Assembly: GCA_963831855.1 (NCBI GenBank)
Contig: CAWHSA010000002.1
Location: 248,214 to 312,213, forward strand
Length of the DNA stretch: 64,000 bases
Direction: 5' to 3'
Source of the DNA: an uncultured Bacteroidales bacterium
GTDB lineage: Bacteria > Bacteroidota > Bacteroidia > Bacteroidales > VadinHA17
Under the pieces are notes generated by a model that worked only from the letters and a program-made list of their open reading frames with translations, was not told the origin of the DNA and did not search any database. Each line of letters opens with the position of its first letter. The first letter of the stretch is position 1. The translations under genes were made by a program, and so were the position numbers. Shown one piece after another: positions 52,074-58,522 of the stretch.

Positions 52074-53354
52074 TTATTTATCCCGAAATAAAAGTTGAGC
52101 AAAGCCAAACAGGCTCTTGCGCCAGGTTTGAAATTCATGTGCAGTTCCGGGAGCTTCGTAATAAACATTATTTATACCAGCTTTATCAAGAGATTCGTGG
52201 ATGGTGCGACCAGTGTTTGCACCTTCTTTGGAACCCATACTAATATAGAAAACTTTTACCTGTTTATTAAACTCAGCCGGTTTAGCCAGCAGACCGTTAT
52301 AGCCGGTTTCAACACCCGGAAAACCAAAAGGAGCGCTGAAAATACCAATGTTGGCAAATTTATCAAGGTTGGCCTGGGTAATCTGGTAAGTCTGGGTACC
52401 ACCTAATGAAAGTCCAGCCATTGCGCGATGGTCGCGGTCAGTAAGAGTTCGGAAAGAGGCGTCGATTGTGGGTATAAGGTCTGAAATAATTACTTTGCCA
52501 AAACCGTCCCAGAAAGAGGGCATACCTCCGGGGCCTTGTCCCGGAGCTCTGTTCCCACCCTGTCCGGGGGCTCTGTTGGCACCTTGTCCTGGTGCCTGGG
52601 CAGGTTGTCCTTGATTTTGACCCGCACCACCCTGTGCGGGAGCACCCTGACCGGGAGCACTACGGCGGGCACCCCCCATTCCGGCAGCAATACCACCATC
52701 TTCCATCACAATTATCATGGGTAAGGCTTTTCCCTCCGCGATCAGGTTATCGAGAATAAAATTGGCGCGGCCCTGATTTGACCAGGCACGGCGGTCTTCA
52801 CCCATGCCATGCTGCAGATAGATCACCGGATAGCGTTTTTTGAGATCTTTATCGTATCCCGGAGGAGTGTAGATGTAAGCATGACGGTTTTCACCTGTTG
52901 AGGCAGCATAATACCAGAAAGAATGGACATCACCGTGGGGCACATTTTTAACGTCATAAAAATCAACCCCTTCTTCCGGAATTTCCATCCCGCTCATAAC
53001 TTTTCCAGCTCCGAAAAACGACTCACTGGCGGGATCTGCAACGTCAACGCCATCAATTTTCAGAGTATAATAATGGAACCCCGGATCCTGAGGCTGGGTA
53101 ATCCCATCCCAGAAACCGTCTTCACCTTTCGTAAGTGCAACTCTCCCAAGACTTACTGTAATGCTTTGTGCTTCAGGGGCCCGCATATGGAAAATAACCC
53201 TGCGCTGTGCATCAACACGTGGATATTCAGCTCCAACGATGTTTGTAGATGCCGGTTTTGAATCGGCCGGAGGTGGTACTGTCTGTAATGTCTGTGCCTT
53301 ACATAGAGTACCAGCAAAACAAAGCAGAAACAAATAGATTATTGATTTTCTCAT
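52074..53354 (-). CDS. CBM48-like + CE1-type esterase, array paralog 1, with P/A/G/Q-rich insertion
   Basis: 426 aa with a signal peptide. [37 protein letters not shown]. Insertion GGARRSAPGQGAPAQGGAGQNQGQPAQAPGQGANRAPGQGGNRAPGQGPGGMPS (about nt 52515-52694). AGLSLGG. GTAHEFQTWR. Confidence 0.8.
   Translation of the reverse strand: MRKSIIYLFLLCFAGTLCKAQTLQTVPPPADSKPASTNIVGAEYPRVDAQRRVIFHMRAPEAQSITVSLGRVALTKGEDGFWDGITQPQDPGFHYYTLKIDGVDVADPASESFFGAGKVMSGMEIPEEGVDFYDVKNVPHGDVHSFWYYAASTGENRHAYIYTPPGYDKDLKKRYPVIYLQHGMGEDRRAWSNQGRANFILDNLIAEGKALPMIIVMEDGGIAAGMGGARRSAPGQGAPAQGGAGQNQGQPAQAPGQGANRAPGQGGNRAPGQGPGGMPSFWDGFGKVIISDLIPTIDASFRTLTDRDHRAMAGLSLGGTQTYQITQANLDKFANIGIFSAPFGFPGVETGYNGLLAKPAEFNKQVKVFYISMGSKEGANTGRTIHESLDKAGINNVYYEAPGTAHEFQTWRKSLFGFAQLLFRDK
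52534..52605 (-). repeat. Three in-frame tandem copies of a 24-nt unit (8 codons, G-N/A-R-A-P-G-Q-G) inside paralog 1
   Basis: Plus-strand units are ccttgtcccggagctctgttccca (52534-52557), ccctgtccgggggctctgttggca (52558-52581) and ccttgtcctggtgcctgggcaggt (52582-52605). Confidence 0.7.
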
Positions 53355-53376
53355 TTAATCTGTATATATGTGAATG

Positions 53377-54564
53377 TTATTTGAAAAGCAATGGTGCGAA
53401 CTGAAACAAGTCTCTTCTCCATGTTAACCATTCATGAGCAGTACCCGGGGATTCGTAATAGACATATCTGATACCTGCTTTGTCTAACATATTACGAAAC
53501 GCTCCAACAGAGCCCGGGAATGGATTGGGCTCTTTCGTGCCCAAACCAAGCCAGAAGAGTTTGATCTGCTTGTTGAGAGCTTCACCGTCTTTGAATTTCC
53601 CGTTGGAAAATGTCGCAGGATCAAGGGCTTCCGTGCCCGGGTAGTTCGATGTACCGCTGAATCCACCAATGTGGGAGAACTTGTCCAGATTGTTCATAGT
53701 GATCTGGATAGTCTGATTGGCACCCATCGAAAGTCCTGCCATTGCTCTGTGGTCGCGGTCTGAAATAGTGCGATAAGCAGCATCAATCATCGGGATGATT
53801 TCTTTGATCATGACCTCTTCGAAAGCAGACATACCACTAGTTCCACGGGCCGGAGCTGCTCCACCCTGAGGAGGTGTCTGATTTGGTTTTGTGGCATAGC
53901 CCTTGTCCATTACAATGATCATCGGAACAGCCTTCTTTTCCGCTATCAGGTTGTCAAGAATAAGATTAGTTTTACCCTGAACAGCCCATCCTGTCTCATC
54001 TTCACCCATACCATGCTGGAGATACAGGACAGGATAACGGGCAGTGGTGTTCTTATCATAATCAGGCGGAGTATATACAAAACACCGGCGCCATGCGTCA
54101 GTAATCCTGGAAAAATAGAGATTCTGCCGGATCTGACCATGGGGAACCTCCCTGAGAGCGTAGAAATCCTGATCCCTGGCCGGAACTTCAATACCGCTGC
54201 CCCAACGGCTGGCACCATAGAAGAACAGGCTTCCCGGATCAGGAACCTGGGCACCGTCCACATTGAGCTGGTAATAGTGGAAACCTTCATCCAGTGGACG
54301 CGAATCGCCTGTCCAAACACCTTTATCGTCCTTAATCAGGTCGTATCTGACGCCGCCTATATCGAGCTGGACTTTCTGAGCCTGGGGCGCCGATATGCTG
54401 GCGCGGACACGACCTTCAGAATTGACCTGAGGATATTGTTTACCAGGCTGATTGGTAGATGCCGGTTTGAAGTCCTCTACAGCCGCAGTCTGGTTAGTCT
54501 GAGCCAGGCAGATTCCACCGGTTAACAGGGCCACTAATAAAATAACTTTAGACCTGTAATTCAT
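53377..54564 (-). CDS. CBM48-like + CE1-type esterase, array paralog 2 (short loop, no long insertion)
   Basis: 395 aa with a signal peptide. [38 protein letters not shown] short loop ([26 protein letters not shown]) occupies the insertion site. [17 protein letters not shown]. Confidence 0.8.
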
Positions 54565-57208: not shown

Positions 57209-57271
57209 AGTTTTAATAATTAAAATATAACATAAACCCTTTACGGGCAATAATTCTTTTCAGAGTGATAT

Positions 57272-58522
57272 TCAGTTTTTAAAGAGCAGTAAAGCAAATT
57301 CCTTCAGACTGCGTCTCCATGACTGAAATTCGTGTGCAGTAAGCGGAGAAACATAAGAGACGCTCTTTATACCGGCCTGATTCAGCGCATCTGCGGCTGC
57401 TTTGAGACCATCGGCGCCACGTTCGCGGCTGCCATAGCTCATAAATACCAGTCTGACCTTGGTTTTGTCAGTAATGCTTTCAGGAGCAATGGTACCGCCG
57501 CTGAATAATCCGATATGGGAGAATTTGTCGAGATTGGCCAGAGTAACAGTCCTGGTTTGCATTGCACCCATTGAAAGGCCGGCCATTGCACGGTTCTTCT
57601 GATCGGATAGTGTACGGAATGTTTTATCCACCCATGGTATCAGATCAGTAGTCATAAGCTGGCCATAGATTCCACCTCCGGGGCCACCCATACCGAACAT
57701 ACCACCCGGGCGCGCTGCACCGGCAGGAGCACCGGCAGGGGGAGCACCGGCAGGGGGAGCGCCGGCACCAGGAGCGCCGGCAGCGGGAGCAGCCGGACGG
57801 GGAGCCGGTGGTCCAGGAACAATTGAACGGGAAGCGCCAACTGCACTGGTTTCCATAACAACAATAAATGGTGTTATTTTTCCTTCTGCGATCAGGTTGT
57901 CAAGTATTAAATTGGTACGTCCCATTTCAATCCAAACCCTTTCATCTTCACCGCCGCCATGCTGAAGATAGAGCACCGGGTAACGTTTTTTAGTACTTAT
58001 ATCATAATCCGGAGGGGTGTAAATGAAAATATGACGCCATGATTTTGCCACCGTTGAATAGTAGTTCCTTATCAGTACATTTCCATGCGGCACATCTTTT
58101 AACTCATAAAATCCGCCATCGGGATCAGGTATCTCAAATCCATTGCACATATGACTATAGCCAATAAATGCGTTGGTAGCCGGATCAACTACGATAGCTC
58201 CATCAACAATCATCCAGTAATTGTGATAACCTAAATCCTGCGGTTCACTGGTGTAAGTCCAGACCCCATTCTCTTCTTTGGTCATATCAAAGGGAACGTT
58301 GACTATTGAGACCTGAACTTTCTGTGCATTCGGTGCATAGATTTTAAATGTCACCCTTCTGTCGGCTTCAATCCTCGGGAATTGATTACCGTACAGGTTG
58401 TAGGGCGAAGGACGCACTGAATCAACAACATTGAAGTTGTTGGAAGCCTGTCCTGACTGGGCTAAACAGACTCCACTAACTGACATGACAATCAGTAAAA
58501 TAGAAAATAATGTTTTTTTCAT
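57272..58522 (-). CDS. CBM48-like + CE1-type esterase, array paralog 5, with P/A/G-rich insertion
   Basis: 416 aa with a signal peptide. [38 protein letters not shown]. Insertion SRSIVPGPPAPRPAAPAAGAPGAGAPPAGAPPAGAPAGAARPGGMFGMGGPGGG (about nt 57671-57847). AGLSMGA. LTAHEFQSWRR. Confidence 0.8.
   Translation of the reverse strand: MKKTLFSILLIVMSVSGVCLAQSGQASNNFNVVDSVRPSPYNLYGNQFPRIEADRRVTFKIYAPNAQKVQVSIVNVPFDMTKEENGVWTYTSEPQDLGYHNYWMIVDGAIVVDPATNAFIGYSHMCNGFEIPDPDGGFYELKDVPHGNVLIRNYYSTVAKSWRHIFIYTPPDYDISTKKRYPVLYLQHGGGEDERVWIEMGRTNLILDNLIAEGKITPFIVVMETSAVGASRSIVPGPPAPRPAAPAAGAPGAGAPPAGAPPAGAPAGAARPGGMFGMGGPGGGIYGQLMTTDLIPWVDKTFRTLSDQKNRAMAGLSMGAMQTRTVTLANLDKFSHIGLFSGGTIAPESITDKTKVRLVFMSYGSRERGADGLKAAADALNQAGIKSVSYVSPLTAHEFQSWRRSLKEFALLLFKN
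57726..57800 (-). repeat. Five in-frame tandem copies (two identical, three degenerate) of a 15-nt unit (5 codons, PPAGA-like) inside paralog 5
   Basis: The plus strand reads ggagcaccggcaggg at 57726-57740 and again, identical, at 57741-57755. Then follow ggagcgccggcacca, ggagcgccggcagcg and ggagcagccggacgg. Confidence 0.8.

Follow-up and report, generated by a model that had tools for sequence, protein, structure and literature searches.

In soils, digesters, and guts, access to arabinoxylan that is cross-linked and decorated with phenolics is governed by feruloyl esterases, which also find use in biomass processing. This report concerns five tandem genes for esterases of the CBM48-CE1 type from an uncultured Bacteroidales bacterium (assembly GCA_963831855.1), found in a stretch of 64,000 nucleotides of contig CAWHSA010000002.1 (positions 248,214 to 312,213; hereafter the window). 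The genes are referred to as paralogs 1 to 5, with paralog 5 being the first gene of the array and paralog 1 the last, and in four of them the catalytic domain is interrupted by a long low-complexity insert. Among the described members of this family, the best solved relative of paralogs 3, 4, and 5 is wtsFae1A (6RZO), a CBM48-CE1 feruloyl esterase from a wastewater-sludge member of the Bacteroidetes. The primary description of this enzyme and of the flexible loop discussed below is reportedly that of Holck et al. in 2019 (J Biol Chem 294:17339). Two other relatives, Bi1039-CE1 (6NE9) and Bi1033-CE1 (6MOU/6MOT), are encoded in an esterase-gene-enriched polysaccharide utilization locus (PUL) of Bacteroides intestinalis; they belong to the same family and have the same Ser/His/Glu triad as the array enzymes, and their PUL resembles the window in that several esterases are clustered in a locus for complex arabinoxylan (PMC7815789). 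Bi1039 is an acetyl-xylan esterase in which ferulate is blocked by the Tyr of a Tyr-Pro motif, and homologs have been predicted to have Sec/signal peptidase I (SPI) signal peptides and to be probably periplasmic (PMC7815789). Finally, DmCE1B_ct (7B5V/7B6B) from Dysgonomonas mossii is, like the array enzymes, a CBM48-CE1 protein with a flexible loop (Kmezik et al., 2021; PMC8040265).

By alignment, the site of the inserts is one that has already been described, namely the flexible loop between strand β2 and helix α2 of CBM48-CE1 structures. In wtsFae1A/B and DmCE1B, this element was reported as "a long flexible loop between β2 and α2" that is very diverse among homologs, and ten of its residues lack electron density in DmCE1B (Kmezik et al., 2021; PMC8040265). 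The corresponding loop of Bi1039 is near the active site and has a chain break at residues 223–237, with the comment that its "precise contribution… is unknown" (Pereira et al., 2021; PMC7815789). When paralog 2 is aligned with Bi1039, residues 221–233 of the latter (ATKPGEKSPFAAS) fall exactly on the insertion site. The β2-α2 loop is thus present at the homologous position in the array paralogs, and it is greatly expanded in four of the five. Based on the placement given in these two structural studies (PMC8040265; PMC7815789), the inserts would adjoin the active site. The solved CBM48-CE1 members have loops of about 26–35 aa that are partly unresolved, and none of the solved CBM48-CE1 chains matched has a long low-complexity loop.

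The array enzymes thus belong to a known family without being unusual in it, their locus is of a known kind, and the loop itself is also known. This qualifies the apparent novelty of the site in an earlier note on this DNA, which was made from the sequence alone. According to the note, no member with an intra-domain low-complexity insertion is known to have been described, and a literature search on CE1 and feruloyl esterases likewise found no description of inserts that are disordered or of low complexity. The esterase AMWEst was considered as a precedent and rejected, as the term low complexity is applied there to read filtering only. Where the papers found describe disorder in carbohydrate-active enzymes, it is in linkers or in tails at the termini. 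For example, the C-terminal extensions of lytic polysaccharide monooxygenases are likewise low-complexity, disordered, and widespread, with roles that are only starting to be studied (PMC8615602; PMC10990093), but they are terminal tails outside the catalytic domain, whereas the array inserts are internal and located in an active-site loop. The part for which no description was found is a frequent, long, low-complexity, and disordered version of the flexible loop inside the catalytic domain, with constrained composition.

The four insert cores are 52–56 aa in length and consist to 88–93% of Pro, Ala, Gly, Gln, and Arg (PAGQR; Table 1). All four are flanked by the (I/V)VM strand on one side and the (L/I)IP helix on the other, which is one homologous position. 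With the M of IIVM and the L of LIP as end points, the loop measures 70–76 aa in paralogs 1, 3, 4, and 5, compared with 36 aa in paralog 2 and 25–31 aa in the other CE1 domains of the window. Among all six reading frames of the window, stretches of 30 aa with at least 75% PAGQR are present in the open reading frames (ORFs) of these four paralogs only, and the inserts account for four of the five spikes in which GC content reaches at least 0.62. This observation is real, correctly placed, and far beyond chance. The loops of the characterized relatives are much shorter, with about 26 and 34 aa in Bi1039 and Bi1033, respectively. The DmCE1B loop is about 35 aa and of mixed composition (DPSASSANSPQGLRGLFQNS), and unlike the array inserts it has no P/A/G repeat. 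The enzyme wtsFae1A shares the CBM48-like and CE1 architecture and the loop anchors (TYGMTNE…FGGI…) with paralog 4, but its 28-aa loop is ordinary in sequence; in paralog 4, an additional stretch of about 48 low-complexity residues separates TYGMTNEG from the GGM patch.

The composition of the inserts is unusual, and their codon usage is not. The overall GC content of the window is 42.5%, and within the inserts the GC content is 0.75–0.91 at the first and second codon positions. At the third codon position (GC3), it is 0.31–0.40, compared with 0.39–0.48 in the rest of each gene. Because the GC excess is confined to codon positions 1 and 2, the composition of the inserts is set at the amino-acid level with native codon usage. 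On the helix side, each insert is closed by a Gly/Met patch, which reads GGMGGMM, GGMFGMGG, or GGPMGGM. This patch is homologous to the MGGM/FGGI of short forms, and MGGM is also present in P0113, a natural ortholog of paralog 4 that lacks the insert. Since insert-less orthologs also carry it, the patch is an ancestral loop anchor outside the expansion, and the possibility that it is part of the insertion was rejected. In the structural model of paralog 4 described below, order is regained in this region as a short helix (residues 284–288). The (GGM)n tail at the C-terminus of GroEL is another flexible Gly-Met motif, which makes promiscuous hydrophobic contacts. The resemblance is one of motif only, as the patch in the esterases is a conserved loop anchor.

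These results agree for the most part with the earlier note, which had reported five same-strand CBM48-like/CE1 paralogs, four PAGQR inserts at one homologous position, and inserts that could not be aligned with each other despite clearly homologous flanks. A Gly/Met patch is indeed found at the end of each insert, but it does not belong to the insertion. Short loops are indeed found in the other CE1 domains and in paralog 2, but the paralog 2 loop is itself a short P/G/A-rich version and not ordinary sequence.

The inserts are located inside a single hydrolase domain. All five paralogs match PF00756 (Esterase) with 58–75 bits (cut-off 22), and in the four long forms this match falls into two parts. 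The alignment of paralog 4 to 6RZO (E = 7e-130) is similarly in two pieces, with residues 239–288 skipped. AlphaFold2 (AF2) models were examined for paralog 4 and for P0113. The paralog 4 model has a mean predicted local distance difference test score (pLDDT) of 81.9 and matches 6rzo_B in Foldseek with an E-value of 1e-51, a TM-score of 0.95 (normalized to the 6RZO chain), and a root-mean-square deviation of 2.0 Å. Along this model, strand 220–224 (FIIVM) is followed by the insert, helix 292–307 (LIPYVD…), and the nucleophile strand 317–321; because of this order of elements, the insert can be assigned as an intra-domain loop, as the note had proposed. The long loops are predicted to be disordered, which also agrees with the note. 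In the paralog 4 model, residues 230–283 have pLDDT values of 25–35, below the threshold of 50, and no secondary structure. Even in the insert-less P0113, ten loop residues (230–239) have pLDDT values below 50.

The expansion can be traced to replication slippage. Tandem Repeats Finder identified periods of 24 and 48 nt in the paralog 4 insert, 15 nt in paralog 5, and 24 and 15 nt in paralog 1. At the codon level, the paralog 4 insert contains an exact 24-nt tandem duplication, and the paralog 5 insert contains an exact 15-nt duplication (GCCGGTGCTCCCCCT). Because all repeat units are multiples of three, slippage alters the length of the loop and leaves the frame intact, and on/off phase variation was rejected for the same reason. 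A collagen-like G-X-Y repeat was also rejected, as the insert sequences have no regular triplet period. About ten residues that are mobile in the short forms have thus grown to about 50 by in-frame replication slippage of 15-, 24-, and 48-nt units. Evidence for rapid change comes from the 120 best database relatives of paralog 4, which are 70–91% identical and derive from many independent assemblies. A simple motif search placed the loop in about 80 of these 120 sequences, and all but three of them have a P/A/G-rich insert with 41–97 aa between the anchors. The three exceptions are proteins of 374–376 aa with a 27-aa loop. Among pairs of paralog-4-type orthologs with 93–97% identical flanks, insert length differs in 97% (median difference 7 aa) and is equal in 3%. 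Down to 70% identity, the orthologs keep the composition of the insert even though the inserts are unalignable. The product of the expansion has no fixed sequence. Its anchors are conserved, namely a type-specific motif on the N-side and the Gly-Met/Phe patch on the helix side.

Long loops are not restricted to this array. A survey with one genome per species gave more than 599 matches, of which the best 80 loci were kept; these and the window contain 194 CE1 ORFs, among which loops of at least 45 aa were defined as long. By this definition, 68 of the 194 ORFs have long loops (45–93 aa), and one or more are present in 42 of the 80 related loci. Within Bacteroidota, long loops are found in Bacteroidales, Prolixibacteraceae, Microbacter, Draconibacterium, and Rikenellaceae; the other phyla are Verrucomicrobiota, Planctomycetota (Pirellulales and Sedimentisphaerales), Acidobacteriota, and Gemmatimonadota. 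Each paralog of the window fits a recognizable loop type, and most types are known elsewhere in both short and long forms, with the ENGS type being long in every member sampled. Six or more loop types and five or more phyla include long loops, which are scattered among them. On a neighbor-joining tree with the loop columns removed, Fitch parsimony gives a short root and a minimum of 20 changes between short and long states. Because the tree needs at least 20 such changes, long loops do not mark a subgroup of CE1, and the new monophyletic CE1 subgroup suggested in the note was rejected. Judging from these sequence comparisons, the long loop is instead a recurrent state of one hot-spot loop. The other evolutionary statements of the note, that the loop is fast-evolving and that it is retained, hold well, the former from the length differences among close orthologs and the latter across many lineages.

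The composition of the long loops is tightly maintained across this sample. The cores of the 68 long loops are composed of 25% G, 22% A, 18% P, 9.5% R, and 7% Q, and they contain 270 basic and 33 acidic residues, compared with 190 and 134, respectively, in short loops. In loci with less than 50% GC, stretches with at least 80% PAGQR are found in 34 of 126 CE1 ORFs and only 1 of 266 other ORFs (Fisher p = 1.5e-17).

Some individual loci illustrate the variation. A Draconibacterium metagenome-assembled genome (MAG) has ten consecutive CE1 genes on one strand (locus L057:169-12494, contig CAXXDA010000005.1), including an adjacent pair of the paralog-4 type in which one loop is short (28 aa) and the other long (59 aa). 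Three other loci (L002, L013, and L014) repeat the order in which paralogs 5, 4, and 1 are arranged. In a Sedimentisphaerales MAG (L055:357-3467, contig JAFGEF010000039.1), two adjacent CE1 genes have Gly/Met/Arg/Ala loops of 83–84 aa (…GRGMGAGRGMGGGGMMGGMMGG…); this chemistry is unlike that of the Pro/Ala type and is reminiscent of abductin or the C-terminal tails of GroEL.

To account for these patterns, we propose a recurrent, composition-selected, and disordered expansion of the specificity loop, which would act as a capture or gating arm for phenolic and acidic xylan fragments. We give this explanation about an even chance of being correct, and the specific chemistry less than that. Selection would act on the composition and length of the loop only. 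The loop would form an arm next to the acyl-binding pocket that is cationic, flexible, and weakly sticky. In this arm, Pro, Gly, and Arg may provide low-affinity contacts to feruloyl and diferuloyl rings, as in the binding of basic proline-rich proteins to polyphenols, and Arg may provide contacts to glucuronate-bearing xylan fragments. The outcome would be a higher local substrate concentration, gating of the decorated oligosaccharides that reach the catalytic Ser, or both, and differing loop chemistries could divide the many ester contexts of complex arabinoxylan among the paralogs. The salivary basic proline-rich proteins provide a possible analogy. These proteins are disordered, rich in Pro, Gly, and Gln as well as Arg or Lys, and bind polyphenols by many weak contacts, through Pro with the aid of Gly, Arg, and Ala (PMC5525358). 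In composition, the paralog 1 insert (…APGQGGNRAPGQGPGG…) resembles them. However, they are free-standing eukaryotic proteins that have no homology to the inserts, such that the analogy is functional only. A role of the insert as a lid or in phenolic contact, as raised by the note, is plausible. It is also consistent with the proposed role that paralog 2, which has the short loop, is the acetyl-xylan-esterase-like member of the array.

Several points weigh against this proposal. The insert is dispensable for catalysis because orthologs that lack it, such as wtsFae1A, are active feruloyl esterases. The length of the loop is highly labile, as would be expected of a neutral product of slippage, and the depletion of acidic residues could be due in part to the seed repeat instead of selection. 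In high-GC loci, P/A/G/R-rich stretches are common anyway (91 of 725 non-CE1 ORFs). Moreover, the tree is a quick neighbor-joining one, and the number of changes counted on it depends on the 45-aa threshold.

The main rival, which we consider serious but somewhat unlikely, is that the inserts are neutral by-products. The β2-α2 loop would then be a permissive loop on the surface, the GC-rich repeat seed within it would grow and shrink by slippage, and the result would be tolerated junk. Much of the evidence above fits this explanation, including the range of insert lengths among orthologs that are at least 70% identical, the length differences between pairs with nearly identical flanks, the exact tandem DNA duplications, and the failure of the inserts to align between paralogs. 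Insert-less close relatives also exist, are modeled as folded, and are the forms that have been crystallized. However, mutation with an AT bias should erode the inserts over divergence to 70% identity, and yet PAGQR are maintained at 88–93% despite an AT-rich, host-level GC3. The ratio of basic to acidic residues of 8:1 recurs across independent expansions, the stretches in low-GC loci are nearly confined to CE1 genes, and the insert is retained in four paralogs of one array. In addition, bacterial genomes tend to shed dispensable sequence. If the inserts are nevertheless neutral, they would represent a clean natural example of slippage-driven disordered growth inside an enzyme core.

A more ambitious version of the proposed capture arm is fairly unlikely in our judgment. 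Here, the insert would be a convergently evolved, built-in disordered element for binding phenolics and uronates in the specificity loop of feruloyl esterases, comparable to a grafted module of a proline-rich protein, with only its composition being selected. It would either capture or gate feruloylated and diferuloylated xylan fragments or shield the site from phenolic inhibitors. If true, the catalytic domain of a carbohydrate-active enzyme would for the first time be seen to contain a functional disordered region, which would have arisen many times in at least five phyla.

Alternatively, the loop may serve for protection, like a bristle or a sponge. It would shield the active site or the surface, soak up phenolics such as ferulate, tannins, and lignin fragments, or prevent adsorption and aggregation, without recruiting any substrate. 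The composition resembles that of basic proline-rich proteins, whose sequestration of tannins protects enzymes (PMC5525358), and released ferulic acid builds up around such loci (PMC7815789). Long loops in this sample are also largely from MAGs that seem to be environmental (based on record titles only), and the short-loop Bi1033, Bi1039, and DmCE1B are from gut bacteria. However, one loop of 50 aa per enzyme is a small sink, and its placement at the specificity loop and not at a terminus suggests a link to substrate access, such that a purely protective role appears improbable.

A role in assembly or tethering, in which P/A/G/M-rich loops self-associate in the manner of elastin or abductin or bind the cell envelope and thereby cluster the esterases, appears very improbable. 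Hydrophobic disordered regions rich in P and G are known to coacervate, the same kind of loop is found in four putatively co-transcribed paralogs, and Gly/Met-rich variants (GRGMGGGMMGG) exist in Sedimentisphaerales. On the other hand, cationic loops would repel one another, and each loop is attached at its two ends to points of one domain that lie a few residues from each other. Dimerization through folded surfaces is also already known for CBM48-CE1 enzymes (PMC7815789).

An artifact or misreading, in which the GC-rich segments result from misassembly or chimerism, are of foreign origin, or link two separate folds, has practically no chance of being correct: although local GC spikes of 0.65–0.78 in a window of 42.5% GC initially give the impression of foreign DNA, the inserts leave the reading frames intact, the GC3 of the inserts equals that of host genes, homologous inserts are found at the same site in dozens of independent assemblies, and the flanks form one α/β-hydrolase domain both in the AF2 model and in the alignment to 6RZO.

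The distinction between the remaining explanations is relevant to how these enzymes are understood. In structural work, the flexible loop has repeatedly emerged as the unexplained difference among paralogs and has been sampled in short forms only, and yet loops of 45–93 aa that are predicted to be disordered are found in about a third of the related genes examined here. If the loops tune capture, selectivity, or inhibitor tolerance, the presence of many near-identical esterases per locus would be explained, and the length and chemistry of the loop would provide a simple handle for engineering.

For the family assignment of the array, paralogs 2–5 have 43–49% identity to paralog 1, and the nucleophile elbow AGLS(M/L)G, the Glu of G-x-x-E, and the His of HE(W/F) are invariant across the five paralogs. 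Their triads (Table 1) correspond to Ser542/Glu606/His638 of DmCE1B and Ser266/Glu332/His364 of Bi1039. The Ig-like, CBM48-type N-domain, which is fused directly to the CE1 domain, is covered by the alignments to 6RZO, 6NE9, and 7B5V, which start at about residue 29–35, and in the paralog 4 model a β-rich domain is found at residues 52–131. With the Pfam CBM_48 profile, there is only a sub-threshold match for paralog 5 (18.6 compared with 22.4 bits). The best PDB match is 6RZO for paralogs 3 (E = 1.7e-136) and 5 (E = 1.3e-97), and the feruloyl esterase Bi1033 (6MOU) for paralog 1 (E = 7e-107). Paralog 2 is a near-ortholog of the acetyl-xylan esterase Bi1039-CE1 (6NE9, E = 1.6e-173) and retains the SNYP motif (Tyr295/Pro296 of Bi1039). 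Going by these nearest characterized homologs, paralogs 1, 3, 4, and 5 are feruloyl-esterase-like and paralog 2 is acetyl-xylan-esterase-like. The putative signal peptides of all five paralogs end in …C(L/K/I)A, followed by Q, which suggests SPI sites and a periplasmic or soluble location. Such SPI-type signal peptides (…CxA, then Q) make the tether to lignin envisaged in the note less likely. A second variable region, located after strand β4 (the "β-clamp region"), measures 30 aa in paralog 2, 25 aa in paralog 1, and 14–18 aa in paralogs 3–5. Across 190 CE1 genes, its length has a weak anticorrelation with that of the β2-α2 loop (Spearman -0.28, p = 9e-5, not corrected for phylogeny), which was not relied on.

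The five genes are arranged head to tail with gaps of 63, 35, 74, and 22 nt, and a gap of 241 nt is found downstream of the array. The short gaps suggest that the five genes are co-transcribed. Paralog 4 was counted from the ATG that matches its paralogs (MKYRHL), as the mechanical ORF begins at a TTG (57250). With the two esterase genes directly downstream, there are seven esterase genes in a row, and the 64 kb contain eight CE1-family genes (nine CE1 domains), one COesterase gene, and one SASA/CE6-like esterase gene. The glycoside hydrolase (GH) families encoded in the window are GH43, GH97, GH95, GH31, GH2, and GH29 (two genes each), as well as GH3 and GH127 (one gene each). The GH31/GH95/GH97/GH43 set is typical of the breakdown of complex, corn-type glucuronoarabinoxylan, as in the large xylan locus of Bacteroides ovatus. 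Other genes in the window encode an apiosidase-like enzyme, a GH5-like protein, a LacI-type regulator, and a SusC-like TonB-dependent receptor, the N-terminal part of which (CarbopepD_reg and Plug) is at 482–3589. No SusD was identified among the ORFs of the window that were scanned, and the gene may be located beyond the window. The array lies inside an esterase-rich cluster for the utilization of complex arabinoxylan, and with more than the two carbohydrate-esterase genes in one locus that set the limit for an esterase-gene-enriched PUL, the window fits this concept (Pereira et al., 2021; PMC7815789).

Table 1. Positions of the esterase array, its loop inserts, and flanking regions in the window.
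Feature	Position	Strand	Description	Matches
Paralog 5 (first gene of array)	57272..58522	-	416 aa; CBM48-like + CE1; loop type ETSA; triad Ser317/Glu367/His397	PF00756
Paralog 5 insert	57674..57829	-	52 aa RSIVPGPPAPRPAAPAAGAPGAGAPPAGAPPAGAPAGAARPGGMFGMGGPGG; 88% PAGQR; net charge +3; GC 0.74, GC3 0.40	
Paralog 4	55937..57208	-	423 aa; CBM48-like + CE1; loop type TYGMTNEG; triad Ser323/Glu373/His402	PF00756, 6RZO, AF2 model
Paralog 4 insert	56345..56512	-	56 aa; 93% PAGQR; net charge +5; GC 0.71, GC3 0.34	
Paralog 3	54639..55901	-	420 aa; CBM48-like + CE1; loop type ENGS; triad Ser317/Glu371/His401	PF00756
Paralog 3 insert	55062..55217	-	52 aa; 90% PAGQR; net charge +5; GC 0.67, GC3 0.31	
Paralog 2	53377..54564	-	395 aa; CBM48-like + CE1; loop type DKGYA; triad Ser279/Glu345/His377	PF00756, 6NE9
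Paralog 2 short low-complexity loop core	53830..53883	-	18 aa, short P/G/A-rich version	
Paralog 1 (last gene of array)	52074..53354	-	426 aa; CBM48-like + CE1; loop type EDGGIAAGMGG; triad Ser316/Glu377/His406	PF00756
Paralog 1 insert	52515..52670	-	52 aa, Gly/Gln-rich ARRSAPGQGAPAQGGAGQNQGQPAQAPGQGANRAPGQGGNRAPGQGPGGMPS; 88% PAGQR; net charge +4; GC 0.67, GC3 0.40	
Region upstream of array	58523..58875		353 nt (minus strand), AT-rich, GC 0.23-0.29; probable promoter region	
Downstream esterase genes	48652..51832	-	double CE1 (49916-51832) and CBM48-like CE1 (48652-49830); ordinary 25-28 aa loops	

Beyond the array, positions 482–48585 form a near-unbroken run of glycoside hydrolase and esterase genes on the minus strand, in which the GH5-like gene (39099–40364) is the only one on the plus strand. 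Within this run, two minus-strand ORFs (38182–38847 and 37332–38213) overlap by 32 nt, and a match to the N-terminal part of DUF5703 (profile positions 9–120 of 287) is found only in the upstream ORF (38182–38847); the region 37332–38847 looks like one gene that is split by a frameshift or sequencing error. Directly upstream of the array, a minus-strand gene (58876–59961) encodes a 361-aa protein with only two-component-regulator propeller (Reg_prop) repeats and no kinase or response-regulator part, which may be a stand-alone sensor-like protein. Further upstream, positions 60042–62754 (minus strand) encode a 584-aa DUF362 protein and a 265-aa CBM9-like protein.

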